A stretch of DNA of 64,000 nucleotides from an uncultured archaeon (GTDB lineage Archaea > Thermoproteota > EX4484-205 > JAAOZP01): positions 6,274 through 70,273 of the forward strand of contig CALIBN010000024.1 in assembly GCA_938045545.1 (NCBI GenBank), read 5' to 3'. Shown piece by piece: positions 6,445 to 61,533 of the stretch. The notes beneath the pieces were generated by a model. That model had not been told where the DNA came from, searched no databases, and worked only from the letters and a program-made list of their open reading frames with translations. Both the position numbers and the translations under genes were made by a program. The number at the start of each line of letters is the position of its first letter. The stretch's first letter is position 1.

Positions 6445-8410
6445 CTATGTTTGAACTACGATTGGTATCGCCATATTCATCCTCGGCAGTAATGCTATTG
6501 CTTCACCCATTTTCAGCTCCTGAATTTTTAAGGCTTGCTCCTCGTTAAGGTGCATCGTATCCGCGATCTTTTCAACATCACTAGAGTACTGCAACCTAAG
6601 GCAAATTATAGTCCCGCACAATCCCAAGACATCTCTCGACACCGTTAATGGTCTCTGATCTATAAGCCAAACAGACTCTCCGAACTTCCTCATCTCCCTG
6701 AGCATCTTCTCCACTATGGTCTCCTGACCCTCAAACCTAGCTGGGGCGATGTTATGGGCTTCCTCGCAGACTATAACGTGCGGCAAACCCCTGTTGGGCT
6801 TCTTCCTTCTATAATCGTAAACCCGCTTCAGCATCATCCACGTAAATATGTTTGCATCCCTATCCGTATCCAAGTCGCTGAGATCAAAGATGACCATATT
6901 TGAGAGAAGCCTCTCCATCATCCCTTCCCGTTCACCGATTGCGTCAAAAACTTTCCCAAAACTTCCTTGAGTGAGCTCGCTCAACCTTCCTACTAGCGAG
7001 AACAGCTTGTCCCTAGCTTTTCCTGAAGGAAGGAACATCAGGTCTTCAGAGTCAACGCTCCTCTCGAGGGATTCCACGAAGTCTACGAAGTCTGGGCGTT
7101 TTTTCCTCTTTAACATACTTCAAATACATCCTCCTGAAAACGTGGGAAACCAATGGCCCGAACTCATCGGGCCAGGCCATCGCGAAGACCTCGCCCAGGA
7201 TCTTAGCATGGCCCTCTGGGTCACCGTGGTGCTCCAAGAGGTTTATCTTGGCGTTATTCGCATCGAGGACCAAGGCGTCATCGAATTCATCAACGTATTC
7301 CCCATGCCTGTCGAAGACCATCGCAAAACCTCCTAGCTCCCTGTATCTCCTCAGAAGTGCCTTTGTTAGAGTGCTCTTCCCTGAGCCCGGGACGCCGAAT
7401 ATCGCCATGTGAAGAGGCAGATCTTCTATGCCTATCTTAACCTCAATCCTCTTTCTCATAGATTCGTATATCCTACGAGTATTCCATTCCTCTCCAGCCC
7501 AGCTGGGTCAAAGGCCCCGAAGTCAACGATCCTCTTGGGCGTGTAAGATGCGCTCGGCGTTATGGGCTCCGGGAAGCTTACGAATGACGATAGCTCATTC
7601 GCTAGTTAGGTGGAGTCTTTTAGAATCCACGATTCCCCTGGCGAGAATGCTCCTCGCTACCCCACTTAGACCCAGCCAACCGGCCTCTTCCAGCTTAACT
7701 CCGTACGATGAGGAGAAGGCCGCTTTAACTGCCTCCACATAATTCCTCTGCTCAAGATAGGCTTGTTTAGGGCTTCTTGTTGAAGGACCTATCACGACGA
7801 TAATGGGAGAGCACGTCCAACACCCAACATCGTTGCTAATCCTTTCGTATCTCTGACGAAGCCTCTCGAGCTCTGTGGATTTGTCCAAGTCATACCCTAT
7901 GAGCTCTCCCCTGCTGTTATAGAGCCCCTTCTCCCTCAGCTTTCTGTAGGCTTTCGAGTACCGTAAGGAAATGCTCCTCTTCTTGGCCCAGAGGCTTAAC
8001 GCGTGGAAAACTCCCTTGCAAGACTTGGACGCAGAATCTCGGTGAGCAACCGGATTCTGCAGAGGATCTTAAAGCCTTTTCAAGCGCATCTTCTGGAATG
8101 TTGAGCTCATCTTCCTTTAATTTCATGGATAGGAAAGAGGCTGCGGAGACCCTTCGGCCTTTAAGCAGGATCAAGACATTCCTATGCTTTGAGATCGGTA
8201 GGCCTCCCAAGGGCCACAGGGCGGCCTCGGGGGAAGCCTCAAGAGCCTCTAGCTCAGCGCCCGGAAAGCCGGCGAGTACGCTGGCCCTCATCCTCGAGAA
8301 TATTTTACTGAGCCCTTCAATCGACCGGGATGCTGCTGAGAGCCTCGCCTCATAGTTAAACGGCTCGTAGGATACCGTGAACATACCTTCAAAGCCGGTT
8401 GCGGAGAGGC
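6445..8410 (-). pseudogene. Frameshifted paralog of the HerA/VirB4-like ATPase
   Basis: Four ORF fragments (7917-8417, 7595-7888, 7052-7459, 6445-7116) collinear with 16499-18694, including GVPGSGKS and IVCEEAH. Confidence 0.9.
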
Positions 8411-8483
8411 CATGCATGGCTTTTTCGCTAGGTACTGGCGCTAGCCAGGGCTATCGCTCCAAGCTCCCGGGAGGTGATGTGGA

Positions 8484-9529
8484 ATGTCTTCTCCGGAACC
8501 AGAGAATAGAGGTAACTATATCATAGCAAGGAAGACTATAAAGGCGAAGATACTTGAGCTGAAGAGGGAGGAAGAGGAACTCCTTAGGCGCGAGTACGAG
8601 AACTTCCAGCGCTATCTACAGGGCGAGAAAACAGTTCCGCTATATGCTGCTACTAAGCAACAAGCAGATAGACTCCTGAAGGAGCTGAACGGGAAGCTGA
8701 GGGAAAGGGAGTATCCACTAATACTGAGGAACGACACCTACCGAATTGAAATCGAGCAAAGCCCCTACTTGCTTAAGATACCCGTCTACGGTGTCTGGGG
8801 AGGGATAAGGGTTCCGATTAGGACCCACAACCCCATAACTAGCGATATGAGATGTAAGGAAGCTAAGGTAATCCACAAAGATAACGAGTGGTTCGTCTAC
8901 ATCTGCATCGAGAAGGAGGTTGAGAAGAGGATTCCGAGGAACATTTGGCCATAGATATGGGGATAAGGTGGATCGCTACGACAGTCAATTCCAGCAACCC
9001 GGTCCCAAAGTTTTACGGCAGGGAGCTGAGGAGGGTCAGGGGACGCTTCTTTTACCTAAGAAGAAGCCTTGCATTGAAGAAGGCATACGGAGCAATAAAG
9101 AAGATTGGTGATAGGGAGCGAAGGATGGTGAACGATATCCTGCATAAGATAAGCAGGAGGATGGTGGACGAGGCCTTGGAGACGGATGCGATGATCGCCA
9201 TGGGGAACTTGAAGGGAATTAGGGAAAATGATAAGGGCAAAGGTTCAACAGGAAACTCAATGGATTTCCATACTGGAAGCTCAGCAAGTTCATAGAGTAT
9301 AAGGCGAGGTGGCTTGGAATAAAAGTGATCAAAATAAACGAGAGGAACACTTCGAAGCTTTGCCATAGATGCGGAAAGAAAGGAATCCGCGATGGAAGCC
9401 TCTTCAAATGCCAGAGCTGCAACTACTCATGCGACGCAGACTACAACGGAGCAATGAACATAATGAAGCGGGCCATGCGCTATATGCGAATGGCAGGGGC
9501 TGAGTTGACACAGCCCATAACCCGGCAGG
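8484..9529 (+). pseudogene. tnpB: tnpB pseudogene with two frameshifts
   Basis: Fragments collinear with 14222-15265; single-base losses near 8944 and 9240; stop TAG changed to CAG. Confidence 0.9.
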
Positions 9530-9577
9530 ATGAACCCACAGGGCGACGAACCGGGAACCCCTAGCATGGGGATGTCA
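9492..9577 (+). ncRNA. TnpB omega-RNA scaffold / right end, copy 1
   Basis: GGGCTG-AGTTGACA-CAGCCC hairpin whose TGACA can pair with terminal TGTCA; CCCGG/CCGGG stem; homology with other copies ends at GATGTCA. Confidence 0.75.
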
Positions 9578-9580
9578 AAA

Positions 9581-11275
9581 CTAGCGCCGAGCCCCGTAGT
9601 CTTCACTGGTTTCTTTAGTAACCAGGTACTGCAGGTCGGTCTCAGGATCCTTAACCGGGATGATCCTTATTCCGCCGACCCTGCTCACCTTCTTCACGTT
9701 CTCCGGGTATTTCCCCCCGTGAAGGTGGAAGATTTTAACCCTGTGTCCTCTTTTAACGATCTGCTCTAGACAGGGAAGCGCCTCCTCAATGTTCTGCCAG
9801 CCGCAATCCGTTATAATGTTTATCAAAACCCTGTTCTCGCTCTCGGAGACGAGCCTCATGATCTCGTTTAGAGGAAGTATCGTCATTCCCCCGAAGTAGA
9901 GCGCTAAGGACAATTCCTTCTCAAGCGTCGAGCCCTGCCATTCTACAGAGTAGTAGTCTGTTGAGAAGGCTATTGAAGCTGTTTTCCCACCTATTCTCTC
10001 CACGGAAAGCAGGTTGATGAAGGCTGAGGTTGCAGCATTATGGATAACCTCCTGCATGCTTCTGCTGGCGTCTAAAACTATTAGGCTTGAGGGCACGTTG
10101 CTTACCGTCATGCTGCTCCCCTTCCCCTTAACCTCGCTCTGCCATTTCACCGTGTTTATTTCAATCCGCAGCCTTCCCTCGTCGAGGCTGGCCTCCAGAT
10201 CAAGGTCTTCAACCTCGTCCTCAATGTTCCAATCCATGGGGTAGCTGGATATTGCTAGATTCGGCTCAGGCCTCCTGCCCTCCTCAAGATATACGAGCAT
10301 CGTCCTCCTCGCCCTAGCCCTATACCAGCATACTTTCCAGAAGAGCTCTTCAACCATCTCGTTAGTCAACCCGGTGTACGGCTTGCTTACGCTCGTAGGC
10401 AGCCTGGGCTCCTGCCCGCCCTCAGGCTTAGCGCGGCGTATTCCCCCGGCTTCTCCCCTTCTGGTCTTTTTCCCACCCGCCGCTTTACCGCTTTTCCTAA
10501 TCGTCTTCTTAATCTCCTCAAGCTCAGAGTTCTTCAGCCTCGATTTAACCCAGTACTCGTAAAACCTTCTCGCCTCCTCGCTGTTTTTTATTCCCCCAAG
10601 CACCTCGTTAATCTTCTCAATAGTGTTCCTGCTCAAGTCCTCCCTTAAGGGGATGCTCGCGCCCGGGCCGGCAAGCTGCCTCGGTATTTCGGCTTTAACC
10701 CTGTTTAAAGAGAGGATGAGCGCCACCAGCCTCACTTTACTAAACCAGTTTCTTTCAGACCTCATAACCATGCTGATTTGCCTAGCCACGTTTTCAACGT
10801 TATAGTCGTATTCCCTATGGCTCTTTCTCAAGATGTGCCTGTAGGCTGCCTGAATATACCTTCCAACCCCCCTCTGCGAAGTGTTTAGAAACTGTTCGAC
10901 GTGATAAGGTGTTTCCCCGAACCTGCTTAAAAGGTAGAAGCAGTCAACGTTCAAGTCGGCGAACAGCAAGACTGAGAAATACGCGGTGCCCCAGTCCTTG
11001 CACGCACCGTAAGCCTCCTTCACCAGCTCGTAAGCCGTCCTAATGTCATACGGGCAGTAGTGCAGATGAGCAATCTCATGCCTGATGACGGACCTAAGAT
11101 ATTTTTCACCGTCAACCTTCTTCGGAACCGCCTCCGGAGAAATATGTACTTTTGAATCCACCACGAAAAAGGGTTTGCCACCTTCACCGTCATGCTTCAC
11201 TTCCAGTTCGCACGGTGGGAAATAGAGTTCACTCCTAACCTGCGCGAAAATCCTTCTTACTTCTTCATCGTCCAT
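9581..11275 (-). CDS. vWA-domain protein with N-terminal HExxH metallopeptidase-like domain
   Basis: RHEIAHLH; MIDAS DASRSM, GMT, ITDCG. Confidence 0.75.
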   Translation of the reverse strand: MDDEEVRRIFAQVRSELYFPPCELEVKHDGEGGKPFFVVDSKVHISPEAVPKKVDGEKYLRSVIRHEIAHLHYCPYDIRTAYELVKEAYGACKDWGTAYFSVLLFADLNVDCFYLLSRFGETPYHVEQFLNTSQRGVGRYIQAAYRHILRKSHREYDYNVENVARQISMVMRSERNWFSKVRLVALILSLNRVKAEIPRQLAGPGASIPLREDLSRNTIEKINEVLGGIKNSEEARRFYEYWVKSRLKNSELEEIKKTIRKSGKAAGGKKTRRGEAGGIRRAKPEGGQEPRLPTSVSKPYTGLTNEMVEELFWKVCWYRARARRTMLVYLEEGRRPEPNLAISSYPMDWNIEDEVEDLDLEASLDEGRLRIEINTVKWQSEVKGKGSSMTVSNVPSSLIVLDASRSMQEVIHNAATSAFINLLSVERIGGKTASIAFSTDYYSVEWQGSTLEKELSLALYFGGMTILPLNEIMRLVSESENRVLINIITDCGWQNIEEALPCLEQIVKRGHRVKIFHLHGGKYPENVKKVSRVGGIRIIPVKDPETDLQYLVTKETSEDYGARR

Positions 11276-11277
11276 CT

Positions 11278-12498
11278 CTATTCGAGCCCGAGGCCCACCT
11301 TCAAGGTTTCCTCCCGGCTGATCCTGCCTTCCCTAACCCATTTCTCCTCTAGGGAAAACAGCTCCTCGGCGAAAACATTATCCTCAGCAGCTATTTCTTT
11401 AGCGGTCCTATATAGGCCTGGGCTGAAACCGTTGTAAAGCTCGTTCAGGATGAACCATTGTTTCCTGGATTCTCGTTCAAACATTCTCTCCCTCTCCCTT
11501 TCAAGCAACTCGCTGATTTCCTTCAAGGGTTTCTCAGGGTTTAGGAAGCCTGTCCTATGTATGAGAACCCATTTAGCCATCTCGATCACATCCTTCTCCT
11601 CAACCTTTCCCTCAAGCCACTTCTTAGCCTTGACGAGTTGAAGCAGGATGAGGGTTGCCCTCTCGCTCGGAGGCTCCTTAACCCTGCTGCAGACGAACCT
11701 GGTGAAATGGCAGCCCTCGCACAGGACTGGAAGGGGGACGCTGCTATGCTCCTTACCCCTGACGCACACTTGAAAGTCTCTGACGAGCGTGTTTATGAAG
11801 CCGATTAAACCTGGTTCAACCCCGGTTTCCTCAACCTCCCTCCTTATCTCCGCCAGGTCCCCCGGCTCCATGACGCGCGGCATGGATTTTATCAAATCGT
11901 AGCCGTAATCATTGTTCAACTCTTGGAGAGCGAATTTTTGGCTCACCGTGAGCGAACTCAGGTAGAGAGCAATGTCAAACCTGTCGTAGAACGGCGGAGG
12001 CTGTATGAAAGTCGTCACGTCACCCGGGTTCTCGTTAGCTATGAGAGTATAGTCTTCAACAGTATACTTCTGCCCGTAGGCCCATACTTCTCCGAACTGC
12101 ATCAAATGATGAATGTTCGCAGTAGTGTAGGGGTTAAGCCTGTTCACCTCATCTATCCCCTTGCCCTGGGCCCGTACGAACTTAGCCCAGAGGACTTTCT
12201 CCCTGCCCTTCTTCTCAAGCGAAGGAATATGGAGTCTTCCAACAACCTCCCCTCTCTTCACCTCGGAGGCTCCTGAAATGACGACAAACTCGTCTCCGAA
12301 GAGGCCTTTCAAAACAAGCAGCATCAGCGTGGACTTGCCTGTTCCCCTGGGCGCCCTTATCAGCGTTGTGGACTTCCTGTGAAGCAGGTTCAGCAAAAGT
12401 ATTGAGATTACCTCCTCGTTGCCGATGAACCTTTTAGAAAGCTCTTCTCTCAGCCTTTCCACGAGAGGCCTCTTGCTACTCACGCTAACCATCCCCAT
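11278..12498 (-). CDS. MoxR-family AAA+ ATPase
   Basis: FIGNEE, APRGTGKS Walker A, IDEVNR Walker B, ANENP, YDRFD. Confidence 0.85.
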   Translation of the reverse strand: MGMVSVSSKRPLVERLREELSKRFIGNEEVISILLLNLLHRKSTTLIRAPRGTGKSTLMLLVLKGLFGDEFVVISGASEVKRGEVVGRLHIPSLEKKGREKVLWAKFVRAQGKGIDEVNRLNPYTTANIHHLMQFGEVWAYGQKYTVEDYTLIANENPGDVTTFIQPPPFYDRFDIALYLSSLTVSQKFALQELNNDYGYDLIKSMPRVMEPGDLAEIRREVEETGVEPGLIGFINTLVRDFQVCVRGKEHSSVPLPVLCEGCHFTRFVCSRVKEPPSERATLILLQLVKAKKWLEGKVEEKDVIEMAKWVLIHRTGFLNPEKPLKEISELLERERERMFERESRKQWFILNELYNGFSPGLYRTAKEIAAEDNVFAEELFSLEEKWVREGRISREETLKVGLGLE

Positions 12499-12794
12499 GC
12501 GGCCGCTGCCAGGGAAACAATTAGGAGTAAAAGCAGTATTCTAAGCCTCAGCATGAGGCTTTTAATCCTCCTCTCCATCCAGTTAATCCTGTCGAGGATG
12601 TCGAAAGCAGTACTCCTGTCGAGATAAATGTAGTCTCCAGAAGTCTTGTTCGAATACGCGAACTCCAGGAACCCTGTGAAAGAATACTTGTCTCTCTTAA
12701 CCTCTTCATCCCAGGAGATCCTCTGCCCCTGCCTCTCAACCTTAATGTTGGTGGACTTCTCCTCTAAAAACTTTCTGAAACTTCTGCTCTCCAA
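12480..12794 (-). CDS. Small tail-anchored membrane protein
   Basis: C-terminal hydrophobic helix; overlaps MoxR start, first gene of the operon. Confidence 0.6.
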   Translation of the reverse strand: MESRSFRKFLEEKSTNIKVERQGQRISWDEEVKRDKYSFTGFLEFAYSNKTSGDYIYLDRSTAFDILDRINWMERRIKSLMLRLRILLLLLIVSLAAAAWGWLA

Positions 12795-12801
12795 GCTGCA
12801 T

Positions 12802-12819
12802 AACCATCGTGCGATGGTT
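12802..12819. promoter_or_regulatory. Perfect palindrome AACCATCG-TG-CGATGGTT, candidate operator
   Basis: Lies between a TATA-like tract and the TTG start of the MoxR operon, in the divergent region shared with hmgA. Confidence 0.45.
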
Positions 12820-12904
12820 TTTTAAGCATTATCCTGTTTTTTAAGGCTTGAGAAGCCCCAGCTTACGTTTGAAAACGTTTTTAACTTAGCCAAAAGGGTA
12901 AACG

Positions 12905-14176
12905 GTGATGAGAACATCCAGAATACCGGGCTTCTACAATTTAAGCGTGGCGGAGAGGCTGAGCAGGATAGTAGAGTACGCCGGGCTGACGGAGGAGGAG
13001 GCTAAACTCCTCTCGAAAGAGGGCAATCTAAGCCTAGAGACCGCTGACAGAATGGTTGAAAACGTGATTGGGACAATGGCTTACCCCTTCTCTGTTGCAC
13101 TCAACTTCCTCATAGATGGTAAAGAGTATATCGTCCCCATGGTTATAGAGGAAACCTCCGTCGTAGCGGCCGCCAGCAACGCTGCTAAAATGACTAGGGC
13201 GAAAGGAGGGATATTCACGGACGCCACAGAGCCCATCATGATAGGGCAGGTGCAACTGACTGGAGTAACCAACCCCCTCACGGCTAAAATGAAGATCCTT
13301 GAACACAGGGACGAAATATTGAAGCTTGCCAACGATCAGGATCCTGTTCTCGTAAAGCTCGGCGGAGGCGCTAGAGATGTTGAAGTTAGAGTGGTGGATA
13401 GTAACGTGGGCCCAATGGTGATAACGCATCTCCTAGTTGACGTTAGGGATGCGATGGGGGCGAACGCTGTCAACACTATGTGCGAAGCCGTAGCACCCCT
13501 GATAGAGAAAATAACCGGTGGAAAAGTATATTTGAGGATAATATCGAACCTTGCCGATAGAAGACTCGTAAGGGCTAGAGCGACGGTTGCCAAAGAGGAG
13601 GTCGGCGGCGAGGAGGGTGTCGACGCAATAGTGAAAGCATGGGCTTTCGCAGCAAGCGACCCCTATAGATGCTCAACACATAATAAGGGGATTATGAACG
13701 GTGTCATTGCAGTTGCTCTGGCTACTGGGCAGGACCATCGAGCTATAGAGGCGGGTGCCCACGCTTTCGCTGCAAGGACGGGCAAATACCTGCCTTTAAC
13801 CGTCTGGGAAAAGGATGAGAATGGCGATCTCGCTGGAACGCTGGAGATGCCCATGGCGGTTGGCTTAATAGGCGGGGCAACTAAAACTCACCCTATAGCG
13901 AGGATCGCGATTAAAATCCTTGGCGTTAAAACCGCGACGGAATTGGCGAGAGTGATGGGCGCCGTAGGTCTAGCTCAGAATCTTGCAGCCCTTAGAGCGT
14001 TGGCGCTCGAGGGGATTCAAGCAGGCCATATGAGGCTTCACGCGCGTAACATAGCGATTATGGCGGGTGCCACGGGAGACCTGATTGAGAAGGTCGCTGA
14101 GCAGATGATTAAGGAAAGGAAGATAAGGTTCGATAGGGCCCAGGAGCTCGTCAAGGAATTCACGGAGAAGAAGTGA
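12905..14176 (+). CDS. hmgA: Class II HMG-CoA reductase
   Basis: ENVIG, EETSVVAA, DAMGAN, THNKGIMNG, GIQAGHMRLHARN. Confidence 0.95.
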   Translation: MMRTSRIPGFYNLSVAERLSRIVEYAGLTEEEAKLLSKEGNLSLETADRMVENVIGTMAYPFSVALNFLIDGKEYIVPMVIEETSVVAAASNAAKMTRAKGGIFTDATEPIMIGQVQLTGVTNPLTAKMKILEHRDEILKLANDQDPVLVKLGGGARDVEVRVVDSNVGPMVITHLLVDVRDAMGANAVNTMCEAVAPLIEKITGGKVYLRIISNLADRRLVRARATVAKEEVGGEEGVDAIVKAWAFAASDPYRCSTHNKGIMNGVIAVALATGQDHRAIEAGAHAFAARTGKYLPLTVWEKDENGDLAGTLEMPMAVGLIGGATKTHPIARIAIKILGVKTATELARVMGAVGLAQNLAALRALALEGIQAGHMRLHARNIAIMAGATGDLIEKVAEQMIKERKIRFDRAQELVKEFTEKK

Positions 14177-14258
14177 CATCCCCATGCTAGGGTTCCCGGT
14201 TCGTCGCCCTGTGGGTTCATCCTACCGGGTTATGGGCTGTGTCAACTCAGCCCCTGCC
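14174..14258 (-). ncRNA. TnpB omega-RNA scaffold / right end, copy 2 (predicted guide CTTCTTCTCCGTGAATTCC)
   Basis: Near-identical to 9492-9577; TGACA/TGTCA pseudoknot; overlaps the tnpB 3' end. Confidence 0.8.
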
Positions 14259-15265
14259 ATCCACATGTAGCGGATGGCTCGCTTCATTATGTTCATCGCT
14301 CCGTTGTAGTCTGCGTTGCATGAGTAGTTGCAGCTCTGGCATTTGAAGAGGCTTCCTTTGCGAGTTCCTCTATTTCCGCATTTATGGCATAGCTTCGAAG
14401 TGTTCTTCTCATTTACTTTTATTACTTTGATCCCGAGCCATCTAGCCTTGTACTCTATGAGCTTGCTGAGCTTGCGATAGGGGAATCCATTTAGTTTCCT
14501 GTTGAACCTCTTGCCCCTATCGCCATCCCTGATCCCCTTTAAGTTCCCCATTGCGATCATCGCATCCGTCTCCAAGGCCTCGTCCACTATCCTCCTGCTT
14601 ATCTTATGCAGAATATCGTTCACCATCCTTCTTTCCCTATCTCCAATTTTCTTGATCGCGCCGTATGCCCTCTTCATGGCGAGGCTTCTTCTTAGGTAAA
14701 AGAAGCGTCCCCTGACCCTCCTCAGCTCCCTGCCGTAAAACTTTGGGACCGGGTTGCTGGAATTGACTGTCGTAGCGACCCACCTTATCCCCATATCTAT
14801 GGCCAAGACATTCTTCGGGATCCTCTTCTCAACTTTCTTCTCAACGCAAATGTGGATGAACCACTCGTTGCCCCTGCGAATCACCTTGGCCTCCTTAAGC
14901 CCCATATCGCCCGTTATGGGCTCATGAGTCCTAATCGGAACCCTTATCCCTCCCCAAACGCCGTAGACGGGTATCTTAAGCAAGTAGGGGCTTTGCTCGA
15001 TTTCAATTCGGTAGGTGTCGTTCCTCAGCATTAGCGGATACTCCCCCTCCTTCAGCTTCCCGTTCAGCCTCCTCAGAAACCTCTCCGCGGCTTGCTTCGT
15101 GGCAGAGTATACCATAGCGGATTTCTCTCCCCTCAGGTAGCGCTGGAAGCTCTCGTACTCGCGCCTAAGGAGTTCCTCTTCCTCCCTCTTAAGCTCAAGT
15201 ATCTTCGCCTTTATAGTCTTCCTAGCTGTAACATAGTTACTTTTCTCTGATTCTGAAAAAGACAT
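14222..15265 (-). CDS. tnpB: TnpB RNA-guided endonuclease with rearranged RuvC-II
   Basis: LAIDMG (RuvC-I), AMGNL plus VNEKNTS (relocated Glu), CHKC/CQSC zinc ribbon, NADYNGAMNI (RuvC-III); SD AGGAGGTGG. Confidence 0.92.
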   Translation of the reverse strand: MSFSESEKSNYVTARKTIKAKILELKREEEELLRREYESFQRYLRGEKSAMVYSATKQAAERFLRRLNGKLKEGEYPLMLRNDTYRIEIEQSPYLLKIPVYGVWGGIRVPIRTHEPITGDMGLKEAKVIRRGNEWFIHICVEKKVEKRIPKNVLAIDMGIRWVATTVNSSNPVPKFYGRELRRVRGRFFYLRRSLAMKRAYGAIKKIGDRERRMVNDILHKISRRIVDEALETDAMIAMGNLKGIRDGDRGKRFNRKLNGFPYRKLSKLIEYKARWLGIKVIKVNEKNTSKLCHKCGNRGTRKGSLFKCQSCNYSCNADYNGAMNIMKRAIRYMWMAGAELTQPITR

Positions 15266-15279
15266 TTAGCACCACCTCC

Positions 15280-15430
15280 TGGGAGCCGGAGCGATAGCCC
15301 TGGCTAACGCTGATACTTAGCGAAAGCCACGCTGGGCCTATACCCGATTAAAAGCGGGTTCCAGCCACTACAAAGCAGGCTAAGAGGTTCTTTCTAAAAC
15401 TCCCTGTTTCATGCTCCTCCGCAGCTCCCA
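15280..15430 (-). ncRNA. Conserved ~150-nt structured 5' leader upstream of tnpB
   Basis: Closing stem TGGGAGC/GCTCCCA; begins ~26 nt after TATATA (15453-15458); compensatory changes against the copy at 61099-61250. Confidence 0.65.
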
Positions 15431-15466
15431 ATTATGTTAAACAGATGGGAGGTATATAGATATTCT

Positions 15467-15510
15467 GATGGCATATGGATGTCACTCGGATGGAACACGG
15501 ATGACACACG
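15467..15510 (+). repeat. Array A: four 11-bp tandem repeats, consensus GATGNMACACG
   Basis: GATGGCATATG GATGTCACTCG GATGGAACACG GATGACACACG. Confidence 0.85.
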
Positions 15511-15589
15511 GCCGCCTTTTTAAATATGCGGAGGGGGCGTTGCAACGGAGTAAAGCATTTCTACCTCTCCGAATGTTAAAAGTAGGCAA

Positions 15590-16390
15590 ATGGGGATGCT
15601 GGGACACGTAGTGAGGCTGTTTTCCGCTGTAATCATTGGACTGCTGTTTTCATACCTCGTTTATCGGGCCTTGACCACTCTAGATAGTTTCCTAGCATCG
15701 ATCCTCTCTCTCGGCCTCATGATGAGCATGCCCCTCACGCTAATCCTGGTTTTCTACAACAGGCTTCGCTGGGGAGCATTTTTCTTCGTGGCCGTCTGGC
15801 TCCTCTACGCCTCAGCGGTATGGCTCTACATGCTGGCCGGCTTTTTCACAACAGTCTTTCATGGACAGGCTTGGATACCCGTTTTCATATTAAGCATCGG
15901 CGGAATAGCCTTTCTCTTAGTTGTTCTCAGGAGGAGAGGGATAGGCCTCCCGCAGGTATTTCAAGGGAAAGGGGAGAGCTTGAAAGGTGTTAAAGAGATT
16001 CAGGAGGTTGCTGAGGAGCCCGTAGAAGGGGTCGTTGAGCCCGAGCCCCAAGAGGAGCCGGATTTCTCCCGAACCATGGAACTCCTGGATGAGGCCCACT
16101 GCAGGATCCTTGAAACCCTATTGGAGTCGGGCAGCCCGTATTCGAAGAAGGAGTTAGCCAAGGCTATTGGGGCAACATACAGAAGGGTTCTTAGGGCGGT
16201 CGAGGAGCTTGAGAAGCTTGGGCTCGTCGAGGTTAAGGAAGCACCGAGGAGTGCGAGGGGCTCCTCCGTAGTTCATGCCGTCAAGCTATCCCCAGCTGTA
16301 TCTAGGAGGAGCGAGCTGGCCAAGGAGATGGTTAAGAGGAGGATGGAGGAGCTCGGGGCGGTTAAGGGCAGGGCTAAAACAAGCGCATAA
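15590..16390 (+). CDS. Membrane-anchored winged-helix DNA-binding protein
   Basis: About four N-terminal TM helices, acidic linker, C-terminal wHTH (RILETLL...SKKELAKAIG.TYRRVLRAVEELEKLGLVEV). Confidence 0.8.
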   Translation: MGMLGHVVRLFSAVIIGLLFSYLVYRALTTLDSFLASILSLGLMMSMPLTLILVFYNRLRWGAFFFVAVWLLYASAVWLYMLAGFFTTVFHGQAWIPVFILSIGGIAFLLVVLRRRGIGLPQVFQGKGESLKGVKEIQEVAEEPVEGVVEPEPQEEPDFSRTMELLDEAHCRILETLLESGSPYSKKELAKAIGATYRRVLRAVEELEKLGLVEVKEAPRSARGSSVVHAVKLSPAVSRRSELAKEMVKRRMEELGAVKGRAKTSA

Positions 16391-16404
16391 AACCCATCGT
16401 TTGC

Positions 16405-16459
16405 CGTGTGTTATCCGTATGACATCCGTGTTCCATCTGAGTGCCATCCGTGTTACATC
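16405..16459 (-). repeat. Array B: five 11-bp repeats, inverted relative to array A
   Basis: Minus strand GATGTAACACG GATGGCACTCA GATGGAACACG GATGTCATACG GATAACACACG. Confidence 0.85.
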
Positions 16460-16498
16460 GGGATGCTTATGAATGGGGATATCGATGATTGAACGGAA

Positions 16499-18694
16499 TT
16501 GATCGAGGAGTTCAGAAGGGTAGTCTACGAGAGGGTTGAGGTGAGCAGCTTTAGGAAGCGCGTTGAGCAAGCCCAGCCTAAGCGAGTTAAGGCCTTCAAA
16601 ATCCTCGGAAGTACGGTTGTCCTAGGTAAAGACGTTTTCAGCGTTTCGGGGAGGCTTGTTTCAGAGATAAGGCTCAGGTCGGCTGATTACGAGGAGAATA
16701 AATCCGAGGTTAAGATGCTTCAAGGCCTTTCGGCAACGGGCTTCGAGGGAATGTTCACGATATCCTATGAGCCCTTCAACTATGAGGTGAGGTTCTCAAT
16801 AACCTCGAAATCCCCAAGGGAGCTTAGACTCATGGCTTCAAGGCTTAAGGCCTCAATACTGGCAAGCAGTCCCGGAGCTGAGCTCGAATCGCTTAGAGCT
16901 TCCATCGATAACGTGCTATGGCCCCTAGGAGGCTTCCCGGTCTCCAGGCGGGAAAACAGGTTGATCCTGCTTAGGGGTAAGGAAGTCTCAGCAGCATCAT
17001 TCCTGTTAATTAAGCTGAAAGAGGAGATGATTAGCCTTCTCGAGGATGGCCTTGAGAACGCCTTAAGGTCCTCTGCGGAATCAGGATGTTCGTTCAGGTT
17101 CTGCGTCCCGGTCAAATCATGCAGAGGATTCGCCCACCTTCTAAACACATGGGTAAAGAAGAAGGATATTCTATCCAGATATTCCAAGGCCTACAGGGAG
17201 CTTAGGGAGAATGGGCTTTTTAACAGCAGGGGCGAGCTCATAGGCGTTGACCTAAGTAAGTCAACTAAGCTTGAGCTTCTCCGCTCTCAGTACGAGAGGC
17301 TTAACGGACAAACGGGATGTTGGACATGCTCTCCGATAATAGTAGTGATAGGAACTCCCGAGAGGGACCCTAGGCAGGCTTGTGAAAAACAGAGGGAGTA
17401 CGTTGAAGCTGTCAAGGCATCTTTCTCATCATCCTACAGGGTTAAGATCGAGGAGGCTGGGTGGCTGAACCTAGGGGAGGTAGCGAGAAGCATACTCGTC
17501 AGGGGGATAACGAGCTTGAACAAACTTCATGTAACCGGCGATGAGTTATCTTGTTTCATAAGCTTTCCCAAGCCAATAACGCCAAGCATATCCTACATGC
17601 CGAAGAAGATCGTTGAATTCGGAGCCTTCGACCCGGCTGAGCTCAGGAGGAATGGTATACTCCTAGGATACTATGAATCCATGAGAAAGAGGTTTGGGGT
17701 CAGAATAGGGATAGAAGACCTTCCCCTACATTTAGCTATATTCGGCGTCCCGGGCTCAGGGAAGAGCACTCTAACAAAGGCACTTCTGAGGAGATACAGG
17801 GAGCTAGGAGGTTTTGCGATGGTCTTCGACAGGCATGGAGAGTACGTTGACGAATTCGATAATGCCCTAGTCCTCAATACGGATAATGCCAGGATAAACC
17901 TCCTAGACCACCACGGTGACCCGGAGGGCCATGCTAAGATCCTGGGCGAGGTCTTCGCGATGGCTTGGCCGGATGAGTTCGGGCCGTTGGTTTCACACGT
18001 TTTCAGGAAGATGTACCTGAAGTACATTAAAGGAGTCAGCCACCCCGATTTCCTGGAATTCGTAGAATTCCTCGAGAAGGACGCCAACTCGGAGGACCTG
18101 ACGTTCCTTCGCTCCGGAAAGGCTAGGGATAAGCTGTTCTCGCTAGTGGGGAGGCTTAGCGAGCTAGCCCAGGGGAGCATTGGAAAGGTGTTCGACACGG
18201 TTGGGGGGCAAGGGGGCGTGATGGAGAGGCTGCTCTCGGGCATGGTCGTCTTCGATTTAAGCGGCATGGATACGGATAGGGATGCGAACATACTTACATG
18301 GTTGATGCTGAAGCGAATCTACGATTATAGAAGGAAGAAGCCCAACAGGGGTTTGCCGCACGTTATAGTCTGCGAGGAGGCTCATAACATCGCTCCAGCT
18401 AGGTTTGAGGGCCAGGAGACCATAGTTGAGAAGATGCTTAAGGAGATGAGGAAGTTCGGCGAGTCTGTTTGGCTTATAGATCAGAGACCATTAACGGTGT
18501 CGAGGGATGTCTTGGGATTATGTGGGACCATAGTCTGCCTGAGGCTACAATACTCGAGCGACGTTGAGAAGACCGGGGACACGATGCACCTGAACGAAGA
18601 GCAGAGGCTGAGGCTGCAGGAACTCGAGTTGGGGGAGGCGATAGCATTGCTGCCGAGAATGAAGACTGCGATACCAATCACCGTCCAGCTGTAG
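16499..18694 (+). CDS. HerA/FtsK-superfamily (DUF87, VirB4/CedB-like) ATPase with long N-terminal domain
   Basis: GVPGSGKS Walker A, FDRHGEY, IVCEEAH Walker B, EMRKFG, IDQRP. Confidence 0.88.
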   Translation: MIEEFRRVVYERVEVSSFRKRVEQAQPKRVKAFKILGSTVVLGKDVFSVSGRLVSEIRLRSADYEENKSEVKMLQGLSATGFEGMFTISYEPFNYEVRFSITSKSPRELRLMASRLKASILASSPGAELESLRASIDNVLWPLGGFPVSRRENRLILLRGKEVSAASFLLIKLKEEMISLLEDGLENALRSSAESGCSFRFCVPVKSCRGFAHLLNTWVKKKDILSRYSKAYRELRENGLFNSRGELIGVDLSKSTKLELLRSQYERLNGQTGCWTCSPIIVVIGTPERDPRQACEKQREYVEAVKASFSSSYRVKIEEAGWLNLGEVARSILVRGITSLNKLHVTGDELSCFISFPKPITPSISYMPKKIVEFGAFDPAELRRNGILLGYYESMRKRFGVRIGIEDLPLHLAIFGVPGSGKSTLTKALLRRYRELGGFAMVFDRHGEYVDEFDNALVLNTDNARINLLDHHGDPEGHAKILGEVFAMAWPDEFGPLVSHVFRKMYLKYIKGVSHPDFLEFVEFLEKDANSEDLTFLRSGKARDKLFSLVGRLSELAQGSIGKVFDTVGGQGGVMERLLSGMVVFDLSGMDTDRDANILTWLMLKRIYDYRRKKPNRGLPHVIVCEEAHNIAPARFEGQETIVEKMLKEMRKFGESVWLIDQRPLTVSRDVLGLCGTIVCLRLQYSSDVEKTGDTMHLNEEQRLRLQELELGEAIALLPRMKTAIPITVQL

Positions 18695-19007
18695 CGTGCT
18701 CAACCATGCTCGGGCTAAAGCCCCGAGAGCGGCTGGATTGGGCTCCATGAGTTAATCGTAGAATGTTTATGAGTTCAGCCGATGGTACATACGCATCGTT
18801 AGCGGGGAATAATTTAAGACCATTATTTTCCTAACTTCCGCTTTTGGCATATGCTAAAACGTTAAAGCCTAGTTTTCAAAGCCTAGTTTAAAAGTCTTCA
18901 GTAACATCCTTCAGCAGCGTTAAGCAAGTGTTCGAATTTCTGTACACGCTGTTCGCAACAATACTGTTAAAAACAGGTGGGGGCAAATAGCAGGATGGGG
19001 TTCGAAA

Positions 19008-19844: not shown

Positions 19845-20378
19845 CATTCCCCCGGTTGAAGCCGGTGGGATTCCCGGTTCGTCGCCCTCAGGGCTCATCC
19901 CCTCGAGTTATAGCGCGCGCCCTATGGCCATTAGGAGGCTTACCACTCTCGAAGCATAAGAATGCTTTAAGCCTGTTTAGGGGACGGAAGATCTCGGCAG
20001 CCTCATCCCTATTCATGAGGTTAGAAGATGCTCTCGAACTTCCTGAGGATGCTCTTGAGAATGCTTTAAGGTCCTCCGAAGAATCCGGTTGCTCGCTCAG
20101 GTTCTGCATCCCAGTTAAGTCTTGCAAGGGAATTTTCCATGCTTTAAGCCTGTGGGCCAGAAGGAAAATTATCTCTTCGCAGTACTCTAGGGCTTACAGG
20201 ATGTTGAGGGGAAAGGGACTCTACAACAGCAGAGGGGAGCTCATAGGCTACGACCTTGGGAAATCCGCCGAACTCGAAAGGCTTCCGGGATACGAGAAGC
20301 TCGACGGTAAAGCTGGATGCGGAAATGCTCCCCTACAATCGTCGTGATAGGCCCTTCAGCAAAAAGCCCTGAACGAGC
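19842..20378 (-). mobile_element. Cassette copy 3 remnant: right end fused to an internal ATPase fragment
   Basis: 19842-19900 matches the right end and keeps a longer hairpin (CCCACCGG-CTTCAA-CCGGGGG); ~19915-20378 encodes the ALWPLGG...NSRGELIG ATPase segment. Confidence 0.8.
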
Positions 20379-30184: not shown

Positions 30185-30362
30185 CTGAAAAAATTTACCA
30201 TATTCGGCGAGAAAGCACATGTCCTTCAGGAATGGTGATAATGCCATTAAACTTTTGGACATTTCTCCACTAAAAGCCTTTCCCCGTATCCATTGAGTAT
30301 GATCAGAATAAGAATGAATATTACTACCTATTTATCTATATAGTTGGGAACTGCGTGAAGTG

Positions 30363-47464: not shown

Positions 47465-47465
47465 G

Positions 47466-47522: not shown

Positions 47523-47541
47523 TGATCCTGTAAATCGCTTA

Positions 47542-49471: not shown

Positions 49472-49483
49472 GCTTGTTCCGCC

Positions 49484-50692: not shown

Positions 50693-50738
50693 GGATGGTT
50701 AGCAAACTTTTATAACTCTGTGCTCGTATAAGTCAACT

Positions 50739-51200: not shown

Positions 51201-51279
51201 GGATTTATTCGGGTAAAAGAGTGTTAAGCTTGCCCTTTTAAGAAGAGGTTAGACAAATGTCGTTAAAATTTTATCTCCA

Positions 51280-52026: not shown

Positions 52027-52084
52027 GACCTGGTTACTCTTAACGGATAAAACCTTTATTAGTCTCGAGAAATCTGCGGGCAGT

Positions 52085-52924: not shown

Positions 52925-53140
52925 AGAACGCAATACCAGCGTGCTTGACATTCTCGTATAAGTGAAGCGTATCTTAGAGATAGATCCTCAGTATCCTTAT
53001 TCATTTTCATAGACAAATATTCCAAGATTTTCTTTGCGTTACCAGGCATGCTGTGCCGACCCTCATCTCTGTGACGCATGTTGGGAGATGAGGATTCGCG
53101 TTTATGCCTTCAACCCCGTAGCGCGCGCCAGCACTCCCGT

Positions 53141-54076: not shown

Positions 54077-54096
54077 TGGTTAAGTGAGGCGGGTTT

Positions 54097-55095: not shown

Positions 55096-55283
55096 TCAGC
55101 ATTACGATGTTTGTTGCTCCTCCAATCTCATACTTAACAAAGCCCGTAGTCAGTTTATATTCCTCTTAATTTCAAAATGTTTAAGCCTCGTTCTTCTGGG
55201 AACAGAATCTGCCGTTGGGCATGCAATGGTCCCTATGGGCTTGAACCGTTAAAAGATAAATAAGGCTTAAGATATGCTGGAGC

Positions 55284-56255: not shown

Positions 56256-56276
56256 TTTTAAAAGGATACGACTGTT

Positions 56277-57650: not shown

Positions 57651-58057
57651 GTTACGACTAGTCTTCTACTCCTTGGCCTAACGTCGAGCTCTATGAATAC
57701 CACTTGCTGCCACGTGCCGAGTCTGAGGGCACTATCCTTTATCGGAATGGTTATGCTCGGTCCAATTATAGATGCTCTCACGTGAGAATGCCCATTCCCG
57801 TCGCGCCAAGTCTTCTCATGCTCGTATTCAGCGCTCCTAGGGGCCACTCTCTCCAGAGCATTCGGCAAATCCTTAAGCAAGCCGGGCTCATACTCTATAG
57901 TCGTCACGGCTCCCGTGGACCCTGGTATGAAAACATTAGCAATACCGTTTTTAATACCGGTTTTAGAAACTATCTTCTCAATTTCACCCGTAATGTCCAC
58001 AATGTCAAGCTCCCCGCTGGTCTTTATCCCAAGCTCCGTCTCAACCACGATCAACAT
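57635..58057 (-). CDS. yjbQ: YjbQ (UPF0047) protein
   Basis: DGNGHSHVRAS, LGTWQQV..ELD. Confidence 0.92.
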   Translation of the reverse strand: MLIVVETELGIKTSGELDIVDITGEIEKIVSKTGIKNGIANVFIPGSTGAVTTIEYEPGLLKDLPNALERVAPRSAEYEHEKTWRDGNGHSHVRASIIGPSITIPIKDSALRLGTWQQVVFIELDVRPRSRRLVVTCLGE

Positions 58058-58309
58058 TCACCACCGTTTAAGCGGAGAAACCAGTATTTCTTAAGCTTGT
58101 TTGGCTCAGGGCTTGAGATAAGCAAGGCTATTCCCACTATGTTCCAGTAGGGCAGCGTATCCTGTGAAAACTGTTTCCCACGGGTTCTGTGCTGATATTT
58201 GGACAAATTATCCGGTAAATATTTTTCTTTTCAAACATTTTTTAAAGGTTGAGTCTGTTCGTAGGCAGAGTTATGAAACAATCTTAATTAAAGATTTTTC
58301 TTAATTTTC

Positions 58310-58618
58310 TTGGAGCACCAGGGGATGGAGCCCGATCCCGATGGCCTGAAGGAAAGATTCATGGAAGGATTAGCGTTCTCTCTGCTCATAGTCCTTTTAA
58401 CAAATGTTTTCTCATTCTTTTTAACGATCGGGAGCAGGGAGGACTTTGATTCTCCCCCCGCCCCTTTTCTGAAGGAAGAATCATCACCCTTAATAGGTCC
58501 AAGTGCCGGCAATGCTGGCGGTGAAAAGCCAGAATCCGGGGAAGGGCTCCTCACTCACTCTCTTTCAACAAGTCGCGAAAATTCGACGAGCCAAGAATAC
58601 TCGCCGTTCGGCAGATGA
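58310..58618 (+). CDS. Possible small single-TM hypothetical protein
   Basis: One hydrophobic helix; no motif; may be spurious. Confidence 0.3.
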   Translation: MEHQGMEPDPDGLKERFMEGLAFSLLIVLLTNVFSFFLTIGSREDFDSPPAPFLKEESSPLIGPSAGNAGGEKPESGEGLLTHSLSTSRENSTSQEYSPFGR

Positions 58619-58838
58619 ACCCATATTCAAATCCAGTACAATATGTCTTATTGAAGGGATAGGCTGCGTGACTACTTGCGGCTGTAGCTAAACCCTATTC
58701 ATCAAGGGCTGGAAAAACGTGGAGCAATAGGCGTAAAACCCGGCTTAACAGGCTGGAAAATGCGGATACCTCTGTTTTTAGCTATTTAAAGTATTGTAAA
58801 ACAATGTTTAAACCCCTCTCCCCAGACTGGTAAGACAG

Positions 58839-60404
58839 ATGGAGGGGAGGAATAGCATAAGGATTAATTTGGCGGCAGCATTCTCACTCCTATTGGTAAT
58901 AGGCTTTTTCCAGTGGAGCAGCTTAAAGGTGGAGCAGGCGTCAGGGTGGAATAGCACAGTAGTATACCTAGACTGGAACGCTAGGCTCATGATTACTCTG
59001 GTCGCTGAAGACGGGAGGCCTTTGGAGAAAGCGTGGGTGTACGTTGTCGACGCTTACACCGGGGAGAACGTTACCGCGGCGATGACAGATGACTACGGGC
59101 ATGCTGGGACACTCGTCGTGGGAGCGGGCAACGCTGCTGAACACTTGAAGATCGAGCCCGGCGACAGGGTTGACATAGGTTTCAACCTTCTCAGAGGATG
59201 GTACTGGGTCGACGAGCACAAGAGGCTTACAGGTGAGCCGGTAAACCCCGATTGGGACCCTGTTTCAAACAATGTTCCCCCGCAGCCCGTTGGAGGCGAG
59301 TATATTCAACACGTATCTTTCAACGGCAGGTCGGGATGGGCAAGGTTCTACGGGAAATACTACGTCGTAGTTTACTATAAGCCCGCTGGTTGCAGCAGTG
59401 TCCTTGGTCCAGTTTCCTCGGTAGTGGTGTTCGACAGCTACACTGCCGAAGCCCAGCACCAGTACATATACCTGGGCATACATCCCGAGTCTTACGCCGC
59501 TACCTCTGAATACGGTGTCTCGCAGGCTAAAATATTCAGGGCTAACGTTGGCGACATGGTTATGTCTTTCAACGATGCTAATGGTAGGCCGTTGAAAAAT
59601 GTTCGCGTCGTGCTTGAGGAATGGGGTTTAAGCGGTTTTACGGACGAGTCTGGAACCCTGCTTTTCGAGAGGATGCCAAGGATAAGCTACCGGCTTACTG
59701 CTGAATGGGTGAGCAGGTATGGCAGCAAGGCTGTCGTGAAGACAACTGTAACGGAAGACACCTTGATAGTAATGCCCATCTACGACATTGTTTTAAGACT
59801 ACTGTCTCCGAGGGGCAGGCCCTTGACTACTGCCGATGTTTACCTTGAAGAAGTATACTTGGGTAAGGCTGATGCTAATGGTGAAGTCCTGGCGACACAG
59901 GTTCCGTCTGGGAACTACACGGTGTCGGCTAAATGGTTTAACTCAAGCCTCGTGTTTCGGAAAATAGGGGTTGCGACAGGCGGTGAAATAACCTTGACGC
60001 CTTCAAACGTGCACAGTCTAACCGTAATGGTGAGGGGTGCTCAGGGACAGGCTTTGGAGGGCGCTGGCGTCGTGATTATGAAGAATGGTTTTGAGCTTGC
60101 CAGGGTTCTCACGGATAAGGGTGGCAACGCTGAGGTTGAGCTGCCTGATGGAGAGTACACCGTAAAGGTTTCATACGGTCAATTCCAAGGGGAAGAACAG
60201 GTTTCGCTCACTCGCGACAGCTTCGCCAGGTTCCAGCTAGACGTGTTCGTAGAGCTCCTAGGGGTTGGAATGACTCTTTCCCAAACCATTCTCCTGATAC
60301 TAGCCTTTATGATACTGGTCATCGCTATAGCGATAATACTGCACGAGTACCATGTTTACAGGAGGAAGAGGCTTCCGCAGTTATTTGTCAAGGCTCCAAA
60401 GTAA
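58839..60404 (+). CDS. Surface protein with carboxypeptidase-regulatory-like (prealbumin-fold) repeats
   Basis: Signal peptide; repeated G.PL..A.V...TD..G...P.G.Y units; C-terminal TM plus RRKR. Confidence 0.8.
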   Translation: MEGRNSIRINLAAAFSLLLVIGFFQWSSLKVEQASGWNSTVVYLDWNARLMITLVAEDGRPLEKAWVYVVDAYTGENVTAAMTDDYGHAGTLVVGAGNAAEHLKIEPGDRVDIGFNLLRGWYWVDEHKRLTGEPVNPDWDPVSNNVPPQPVGGEYIQHVSFNGRSGWARFYGKYYVVVYYKPAGCSSVLGPVSSVVVFDSYTAEAQHQYIYLGIHPESYAATSEYGVSQAKIFRANVGDMVMSFNDANGRPLKNVRVVLEEWGLSGFTDESGTLLFERMPRISYRLTAEWVSRYGSKAVVKTTVTEDTLIVMPIYDIVLRLLSPRGRPLTTADVYLEEVYLGKADANGEVLATQVPSGNYTVSAKWFNSSLVFRKIGVATGGEITLTPSNVHSLTVMVRGAQGQALEGAGVVIMKNGFELARVLTDKGGNAEVELPDGEYTVKVSYGQFQGEEQVSLTRDSFARFQLDVFVELLGVGMTLSQTILLILAFMILVIAIAIILHEYHVYRRKRLPQLFVKAPK

Positions 60405-60494
60405 ATGCCTGAAATCTTTTTTATGCATGTTCAAAGTTTTCTTACACGAGTGGAAAAATTTGAGCTCTAAAATGTTTGCCTCTTCTTATGCTAC

Positions 60495-60993
60495 TTAAAA
60501 GGAGACATTAATGGGTGTTGCTGTTCTCATCCTCGGCAGCAGCGCTATCGCCTCTCCCAACCCGAGCTCCTGTAGCTTCAGCCTCTGCTCCTAGCTTAGG
60601 TGTATCGTATCAGCAATCTTTTCAACCTCGCTCTCAATACTGTTAAGGGCCTCTGGTATATTGGCCAAACCGATTCCCCGAACTTCCTCATCTCCTTAAG
60701 CATCTTCTCAACTATGGTCTCCTGCCCTTCGAATTTGGCTGGGACGATGTTGGGCCTTCTCGCAGACTATGACGTGCGGCAAACCTCCGTCAGGCTTCCT
60801 CCTCCTATAATCGTAAACCCGCTTAAGCATCATCCACGTAAATATGTTTGCATCCTTATCAGTATCCATGTAAGTCAAAAAATTACCATGTCTGAGAGGA
60901 GCCTCTCCATCATGCCCTCCTGCTCGCCGACAGTATCGAATACCTTTTCGATGCTTCCTCGGGTTAACTTGCTCAGCCTTCCTACCAGTGAGC
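60495..60993 (-). pseudogene. C-terminal fragment of the HerA/VirB4-like ATPase
   Basis: DANIFTWMMLKRVYDY...LPHVIVCE...LPRMRTATPI with frameshifts. Confidence 0.85.
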
Positions 60994-61018
60994 ACACCTT
61001 TCCACATATAAAGGCGAC

Positions 61019-61062
61019 CGTGCGCCACCCGTATTCCGTCCGCGTGCCATCTGAGCGCCATC
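61019..61062 (-). repeat. Array C: four decayed 11-bp repeats (counterpart of array A)
   Basis: Minus strand GATGGCGCTCA GATGGCACGCG GACGGAATACG GGTGGCGCACG. Confidence 0.75.
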
Positions 61063-61098
61063 GGAATGTCTATATACCGTCCATCTGTTTAAGATAAT

Positions 61099-61250
61099 TG
61101 GGAGCTGCGGAGGAGCGTGAAACAAGGAGTTTTCGAAGAGGCATCCTGGTCCGTTTTGTAGTGGCTAAAGCCCGCCTTTAATTGGGCATAGGCCACGCGT
61201 GTTTTCGCTAAAACACTAGCGTTAGCTAGGACTATCGCTCCAAGCTCCCG
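61099..61250 (+). ncRNA. Second full copy of the structured tnpB leader
   Basis: TGGGAGC...GCTCCCG after TATATA; homologous to 15280-15430. Confidence 0.65.
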
Positions 61251-61533
61251 GGAGGTGGTATAGAATGTCTTCTCTGGAATCAGAGAATAGAAGAATAGAG
61301 GTAACTATATTATAGTAGAAAAACGATGAAGATCCTGGGGCTGAGCGAGAAGGAGGGAAAGGCATGAGTACGAGAATTTCCAGCGATACTTGCAGGGCGA
61401 CGAACCGGGAACTCCTCACTAGGAGATGTCAAAGGAGGAAAATTAACGAATTATTGAGAAGCTAATTCTGAAATAATCGTGTTGAAAAGCCGGACTAAAG
61501 CTTTTTATATTAACTGTAATGCCTATATTGGCT

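Follow-up and report, generated by a model that had tools for sequence, protein, structure and literature searches.

The DNA analysed here, referred to below as the window, is a stretch of 64,000 nucleotides from an uncultured archaeon of a hot spring (positions 6274-70273 of contig C24, CALIBN010000024.1), which carries a cassette of a transposon-type nuclease gene, tnpB, a gene for a winged helix-turn-helix (wHTH) protein with predicted transmembrane (TM) segments, and a gene for a HerA-clade ATPase. We propose, with about an even chance of being right, that this cassette is a conflict module of nuclease and translocase, regulating itself, which took up TnpB together with its right end (RE) and became insertion sequence (IS)-like. 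We infer its function by analogy with HerA-nuclease pairs and its regulation from the geometry of promoters and operators. The cassette would be a chimera of two parts. The first would be a core module, present in several thermophilic archaeal lineages, of a wHTH protein with iterons, a soluble ATPase and a leader-borne nuclease, the iteron arrays overlapping divergent promoters. In the second, a TnpB with a rearranged RuvC site would have replaced the module nuclease, bringing the RE and the omega-RNA region; this TnpB version behaves like an IS, having inserted as a unit of 4.7-5.4 kb, multiplied and given small non-autonomous derivatives, and is now mostly decaying. The source genome (G000) is a metagenome-assembled genome (MAG) of 2.03 Mb in 51 contigs, 92% complete, and was compared with MAGs of its genus (17 genomes, 57-94% complete). 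The closest protein homologs carry the source names Candidatus Brockarchaeota or Thermoproteota; on the basis of these names and of codon usage, a haloarchaeal origin was rejected.

The cassette is intact only in copy A (14174-18694), with tnpB on the minus strand (14222-15265, 347 amino acids) and the genes for wHTH (15590-16390, 266 amino acids) and ATPase (16499-18694, 731 amino acids) on the plus strand. The original prediction had reported four copies with a common gene order and a divergent ATPase gene. Four copies were found at or near the places given, only A being undecayed, and the three-gene order is real in A; the ATPase gene, however, is co-directional with the wHTH gene and divergent only from tnpB. 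G014, G018 and, at two loci, G012 have the same order, with tnpB on one strand and wHTH and ATPase on the other. Each of the three genes evolves under purifying selection, with ratios of nonsynonymous to synonymous substitution rates (dN/dS) of 0.05-0.37 overall and 0.10-0.15 for tnpB among intact copies. Wherever a locus leaves room for it, a wHTH homolog adjoins the ATPase gene (14 of 14 loci; co-directional in 11, opposite in 3). The position of the nuclease is filled more variably: in the 12 of these 14 loci that could be assessed (the other two could not), it holds the cassette's own TnpB family, TnpB-1, in five loci, a second family, TnpB-2, in two, a protein that we call X in three and another, Y, in two. 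Thus the unit of TnpB, wHTH and ATPase that had been predicted does recur, is selected and was inserted whole, but its nuclease position can also hold X, Y or a different TnpB, and TnpB is thus not a specific partner. TnpB-2, of 440 amino acids, keeps the canonical catalytic Glu and is 26% identical to TnpB-1. In the tree of ATPases, clades track nuclease type at shallow depth, deep nodes being weak. Genomes with X- or Y-type modules have one ATPase match each, and genomes with TnpB-1 have several.

X (about 400 amino acids) and Y (about 600) match no Pfam family. X has invariant residues D323, E337 and K339, which form a D...ExK motif. The X sequence profile gave only chance-level matches against PDB sequences, and the 17 best PDB matches of its fold model, which has a mean predicted local distance difference test (pLDDT) score of 78.6, were all PD-(D/E)xK, Cas4, RecB, NucS or Card1 nucleases (E = 2e-3 to 1e-2), suggesting a fold-level likeness of X to PD-(D/E)xK-type nucleases. 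Comparison of Y with X using hhalign gave a weak alignment of 57 columns over the D..ExK motif, with a probability of 7.7%. Y-type modules also have a conserved gene on the opposite strand after the ATPase gene (L065 5269-6198, L064 3372-4346, L076 6184-6977), the product of which combines an archaeal ATPase_2 domain with an MCM_C-like winged helix; this gene may belong to the module as well.

The different nucleases are joined to the module by a common structured leader. In copy A this 5' untranslated region (15273-15429, minus strand, about 150 nt) ends at the Shine-Dalgarno sequence of tnpB, the start codon of which lies about 15 nt from it. Loci with TnpB-1, X or Y all have a conserved version of it between the repeats and the start of the nuclease gene, and TnpB-2 loci have a matching closing stem. 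With the Shine-Dalgarno region excluded from the alignment when the structure was derived and pairs counted afterwards, the leader was predicted to form a multi-helix structure closed by a long stem, in which 85% of cells are paired vs 31-57% when the alignment was slid, and nine pairs change on both sides in a compensatory manner vs 3.8 +/- 1.5 in shuffles. Folding z-scores were -2.5 (copy A) and -4.0 in GC-rich examples and were not significant in AT-rich ones. RNAalifold returned no structure on a first, too diverse leader alignment and an odd consensus on a trimmed one, and Rfam gave no match for the window at the gathering threshold or for 14100-16600 at E <= 1. The 3' strand of the closing stem abuts the Shine-Dalgarno sequence and can alternatively pair with it. 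A TnpB relative in another family, at 49% identity, has the same RE type with neither leader nor iterons, and the leader therefore belongs to the module and not to the IS.

The wHTH protein has four predicted TM segments, all hydrophobic and within residues 1-118, followed by an acidic linker and a C-terminal winged helix. To the left of its gene lies an array of three to four GGATG-type units spaced by about 11 nt (15462-15512), between the outward TATA-like box of tnpB and the inward one of wHTH; to its right, upstream of the ATPase gene, lies an inverted copy of this array (16403-16464), the two forming in copy A an inverted repeat of 50 nt at 80% identity. Such inverted arrays of three to four short repeats bracket the wHTH gene in 8 of 9 loci tested, the longest inverted flanking repeat being 74 nt at 100% identity. 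It is a reasonable inference from this arrangement that the four-TM wHTH protein co-regulates both promoters from the membrane through the iterons. Nonsynonymous change is much faster in the wHTH gene (dN about 0.5) than in the genes beside it (0.1-0.25). In two metagenome loci, L066 and L068 (wHTH blocks at 1153-1716 and 6170-6889, respectively), the ATPases are 97.7% identical, whereas the wHTH proteins are only 41% identical, the repeat units are different and the wHTH genes are oppositely oriented, indicating that regulator and operator sites were exchanged as one block.

The ATPase has a DUF87/HerA domain and a TrwB_AAD_bind match, with the Walker A motif at residues 416-424. The DUF87 match scored 49.6 bits (cut-off 23.2), the P-loop is that expected of a HerA central domain, and the best solved relative was HerA 4d2i (E = 3e-16). 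No hydrophobic or TM segment was predicted, i.e. the protein should be soluble. Its best NCBIfam match was CedD, at 106.7 bits (cut-off 600), and HerA_Thermprot reached 60.3 bits (cut-off 800); the likeness to these families is limited to residues 398-729, and both scores stay under the equivalog cut-offs. Since the likeness to CedD and HerA lies in the ATPase domain only, the earlier suggestion that this protein pumps DNA from cell to cell lacks specific support. Matches to the HerA models of PADLOC extend over a portion of the ATPase domain only (best E = 1e-24, residues 580-715), and the ATPase has few full-length relatives, which form 27 clusters at 90% identity and 14 at 50% (E <= 1e-30). 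The N-terminal domain of about 400 residues is unrelated by sequence to HerA and CedD. A search of the ESM Atlas with residues 1-400 led to unnamed clusters and, as a lead only, to DUF8128 at 26%, and complex prediction for residues 1-400 with TnpB gave a score of 0.01, which counts neither for nor against a contact. A HUH/Rep-like nuclease in the N-terminal domain was ruled out, as there is no invariant His before residue 411 in 10 sequences. The motif SYEPFNYE (residues 89-96, window 16763-16786) is invariant in 10 of 10 aligned sequences; it is possibly an active or contact site.

The TnpB of the cassette belongs to the guided nucleases by family profile (NCBIfam guided_TnpB, 168.8 bits, cut-off 100), with Pfam OrfB_IS605 at 31 bits (cut-off 30.5) and a Cas12f1-like TNB domain at 80.7 bits, and has the RuvC-like and zinc-ribbon domains typical of IS200/IS605 elements. 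The RuvC-I and RuvC-III Asp are kept, and the canonical RuvC-II Glu is replaced by Gly, as in 120 of 120 best homologs. Such a Glu-to-Gly change is described as a "rearranged catalytic site" and predicted to be active in the part of PMC10691335 covered. A nuclease-dead, exapted TnpB of the TldR kind was ruled out, as both Asp are present and the Gly is of the known rearranged type predicted to be active. In addition, the element is multicopy with polymorphic insertions, unlike the single immobilised locus of an exapted TnpB.

The TnpB version has a precise right end. In copy A it lies at 14174-14221 (minus strand), with the terminus ...TGTCA in the tnpB orientation and a subterminal hairpin, and the conserved RE/omega-RNA-type segment extends into the 3' end of tnpB, to about 14330. 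Alignment of 15 copies revealed a sharp TTGACA-type terminus in the window orientation (14174-14190) and the subterminal hairpin, and homology with G014 stops exactly at 14174. A hairpin and terminus after tnpB are as expected of an IS200/IS605 element, the omega-RNA itself being a prediction. The RE segment is present at 17 sites of G000 in total. The neighbouring HMG-CoA reductase gene takes its stop codon, TGA, from the first bases of the RE (14174-14176), and the gene ends with TAA in G014, which is free of the insertion. On the far side, similarity among copies stops at the ATPase stop codon with unrelated flanks beyond, and the cassettes end variably, at 19, 93 or about 900 nt past that codon. 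With blastn-short, no ATPase gene was found to be followed by the canonical left end (LE) that small PATE-like relatives carry.

Three separate insertions could be matched with precise empty sites. For that in G012:C12 and G018:C5, the flanks abut in 12 of the 17 genus genomes, and the insert is 4.66 kb with an 11-bp target sequence repeated at both junctions. For that in G012:C41, all five genomes searched have the flanks directly joined; this insert is 5.37 kb, comprising the cassette and about 900 bp past the ATPase gene, without a duplication and with 4-5 nt lost. The third is a derivative of 495 bp in G000:C17, made up of the RE, remnants of tnpB and leader, and the final stretch of the ATPase gene. 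It is missing in G014, G012 and G023, with a 10-11-bp duplication and flanks 97% identical to G014, so that it must have been small already when it inserted, and have inserted recently. Altogether, five LE-less units had target duplications of 10-11 bp in two, an imperfect one of about 19 bp with filler in one and none in two, and in 5 of 9 empty sites a YTA-type motif, as read by eye, precedes the RE-side flank on its 5' side. A separate small family of repeats of about 120 bp and about 80% identity, occurring on many contigs across the genus genomes (e.g. L029, about 10086-10211), adjoins one insertion site.

The main rival is that the cassette is an ordinary IS200/IS605 element in which wHTH and ATPase are passengers and a Y1 transposase, TnpA, from an unassembled or a virus- or plasmid-borne gene acts in trans. 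We consider this unlikely, though it deserves serious weight. The subterminal hairpin and precise terminus in 15 copies are what such an element should have, and C16, C14 and C1 hold three small elements, of 345-386 bp, in which this RE is combined with a distinct LE that has its own hairpin; these lie by T-rich sequence, show no target duplication in three of three, and include a single iteron array and the leader's first half. A solo match to this LE stands at 30199-30230 on the minus strand (C24 36472-36503, 97% over 32 nt). Internal-deletion derivatives of this kind recall the PATEs of Haloquadratum (PMC3119063, in the portion covered), and MAGs that are only 57-94% complete may hide a transposase. 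On the other hand, the Y1_Tnp model (PF01797), which detected the controls and had three matches above cut-off elsewhere in the class, gave none in G000 or in any of the 17 genus genomes, and Resolvase (PF00239) gave none in G000. The predicted lack of TnpA was thus borne out in these genomes, although, all being MAGs, absence is not proven. The cassettes also have variable far ends in place of a canonical LE, and two LE-less insertions carry duplications of 10-11 bp, which the IS200/IS605 family does not make. Furthermore, the tnpB start lies about 15 nt from a leader common to non-TnpB nucleases, and a second TnpB family occupies the same position.

An alternative role for the module genes is as mobility machinery: ATPase and membrane wHTH, joined with TnpB and the RE, would make up a TnpA-independent route of moving DNA. 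An RNA-guided cut at a T-rich motif would be followed by ATPase-driven processing of the ends and copying from the RE, and copying of this kind would leave duplications of 10-11 bp, with a right end that is precise and a far end that varies. We hold this to be improbable.

The copies within the window and the genome bear on how the cassette spread. Copy B (about 6445-9577), inverted relative to A, retains the ATPase gene as a pseudogene, a remnant of the leader, a tnpB with a frameshift (8484-9564, plus strand) and an RE (9561-9577). It is 77-87% identical to A, both of its remaining genes are broken, and the part corresponding to 15340-16720 of A, including wHTH, is missing. Copy 3 (19868-20351, plus strand) has a 44-nt RE fragment (19868-19911) and an ATPase fragment for residues 136-276 at 59% identity. 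Copy 4 (about 60405-61432) retains a 3' part of the ATPase gene (60511-61000) and the leader with a 5' part of tnpB (61007-61397), the latter fused to the last 38 nt of an RE that ends at 61432; this stretch is absent in G023 and G012. In BLASTN of copy A against the genome, further copies appeared on C4 (2.7 kb) and C29 (tnpB only) and short pieces on C1, C8 and C17. The locus on C15 has no synteny in relatives. Between A and B lies a host segment (9578-14173) with an open reading frame of 564 codons, a MoxR-like ATPase and HMG-CoA reductase, which is flipped relative to the closest genome, G014, as would fit recombination between the inverted copies. Because A and B recombined, the insertion history of A cannot be fully reconstructed. 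The ATPase remnant on C8 (9134-9489, L089) has a downstream flank in common with the X-type module of G021 and with 5'-cut partial ATPase genes of G019 and G017 (L027, L032, L033); it is an orthologous, vertically inherited locus that decayed in G000.

It could be argued that chance adjacency of the genes was followed by segmental duplication within one genome, as A and B are inverted and 4.6 kb apart. This is extremely improbable, for the copies are 13-30% diverged with unrelated flanks, the same gene order occurs at other loci in three other species, and the precise empty sites of three separate insertions contradict it. The original prediction had likewise taken the copies for separate insertions, which their divergence, their flanks and the empty sites in sister genomes confirm. 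Alternatively, the cassette might be the remnant of an integrated plasmid- or virus-like replicon, in which wHTH was an initiator or repressor, the ATPase a replicative or packaging motor and the nucleases accessory, a possibility that we rate as decidedly improbable. Iterons at about helical-turn spacing beside the wHTH gene would suit it, as would a wHTH-iteron pair that can be swapped and evolves fast, in the manner of immunity or incompatibility regions. Archaeal "dark matter islands" also have HerA-like helicases and wHTH regulators among their commonest families, and these families are called virus-associated in that setting (PMC4158269, as far as Table 1 goes). Nevertheless, none of the loci compared has an integrase, capsid or replication gene linked to it, collections of phages and plasmids yielded only ATPase-domain matches of about 25% identity, and the inserted units are just 4.7-5.4 kb and bounded by the right end of TnpB.

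Several observations weigh against a conflict module that captured TnpB. The structure of the leader rests on only nine sequences, and the AlphaFold2 model of the ATPase, from 10 sequences, had a pLDDT of 48, too poor to use. Small elements with hairpins at LE and RE and no target duplication fit IS200/IS605 elements driven by a TnpA that the MAGs missed. Since tnpB genes are very common in these archaea, some of the adjacency could come from repeated insertion, and the tree of ATPases, being resolved in its shallow clades only, does not order the nuclease swaps. X-like nuclease domains also occur outside the module, e.g. in G000:C22. The X-like protein encoded there (3092-4285, L113) is intact and 50% identical to X, has no leader and no wHTH or ATPase gene nearby, and seems to correspond to the C-terminal portion of a longer protein of the kind of P0149 and P0150.

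If a conflict module did capture TnpB, it might work as follows. The wHTH protein would bind the iterons on both sides of its gene, so that both outward promoters and its own promoter are held in check from the membrane. Translation of the nuclease would in addition be gated by the leader, the 3' strand of which would pair either with the 5' strand or with the Shine-Dalgarno sequence. On release, nuclease and ATPase would be made together, and the ATPase, as a hexamer, would work on DNA cut by the nuclease, in the way of HerA-NurA and HerA-effector defence pairs. Where the nuclease is TnpB, the cut would be RNA-guided and placed beside a short T-rich motif, which would favour retention and spread of the unit. 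The fast-diverging, swappable pair of wHTH and iterons may serve as a specificity determinant, akin to immunity, between related elements.

Should this be right, two unrelated TnpB families act as plug-in nucleases of a HerA-type ATPase module, which would add, besides CRISPR and the exaptations already known, a way from transposon nuclease to cellular or conflict system. As one copy is intact, insertions are dated, empty sites are at hand and the ends are defined, the cassette would also be a small test case for the movement of tnpB-only and miniature elements without TnpA, and TnpA-independent movement, if it occurs, would account for the spread of tnpB-only elements among archaea without TnpA. 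Three of its parts are unexplored, namely a leader outside the Rfam families, a membrane wHTH protein with swappable operators and an ATPase N-terminal domain with the SYEPFNYE motif.

The combination had been predicted to be undescribed, and indeed no description of a TnpB linked to a HerA-like ATPase was found in the literature searched, supplements aside. With the IS200/IS605 tnpB-only elements of Haloquadratum walsbyi and their PATE/MITE-like derivatives, as presented in the part of PMC3119063 covered, the cassette shares the TnpB gene, a hairpin RE with a precise end, internally deleted derivatives that keep the ends, small LE/RE elements without duplication, and apparent mobility where no intact TnpA was seen. 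It differs from them in two extra genes, the lack of a canonical LE and a variable far end, and from tnpB-only elements also in duplications of 10-11 bp in two insertions and in a leader and promoter that are shared with non-TnpB nucleases.

TldR is a further exapted TnpB. The gene-linked TnpBs (sigma-TnpB, SpoIIE-TnpB and RHH/MazE-TnpB) share with the cassette a stable linkage to a non-transposase gene, the archaeal ones having a rearranged RuvC, but according to the part of PMC10691335 covered they are immobilised and mostly predicted to be inactive, whereas the cassette TnpB is multicopy and mobile and keeps both Asp. The word "ATPase" occurs 0 times in the main text of that paper. The Ced system (CedD/CedB/VirB4; bioRxiv 10.1101/2024.09.27.615246, in the part covered) shares an architecture in which the HerA/VirB4-like ATPase domain is preceded by a long N-terminal one; unlike CedD, the cassette ATPase has no TM segment, its N-terminal domain does not match, and no CedA or pilin genes lie nearby.

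In the immunity regions of phages, with repressor and operators, and the incompatibility modules of plasmids, with Rep and iterons, a protein and its sites diverge together and can be swapped. Likewise, the wHTH gene of the cassette is flanked by arrays of presumed binding sites and is swappable between near-identical elements; the regulator here is, however, anchored in the membrane and is accompanied by no replication or lysogeny genes. A parallel in function would be the pairs of HerA-NurA in repair and of SIR2-HerA and DUF4297-HerA in defence, where a HerA-clade ATPase likewise has as its neighbour a nuclease or effector that can be exchanged and that in some variants has a PD-(D/E)xK fold, as modelled here for X. 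A HerA-effector defence system as usually recognised, with a match to a HerA model and a named effector family, was not found in the cassette, the PADLOC match being partial and X and Y having no Pfam family. Compared with these pairs, the equivalog scores of the ATPase are far below cut-off and its N-terminal domain is unrelated, and the module adds a membrane wHTH protein, iterons and a structured leader to a pairing in which the partner can be TnpB.

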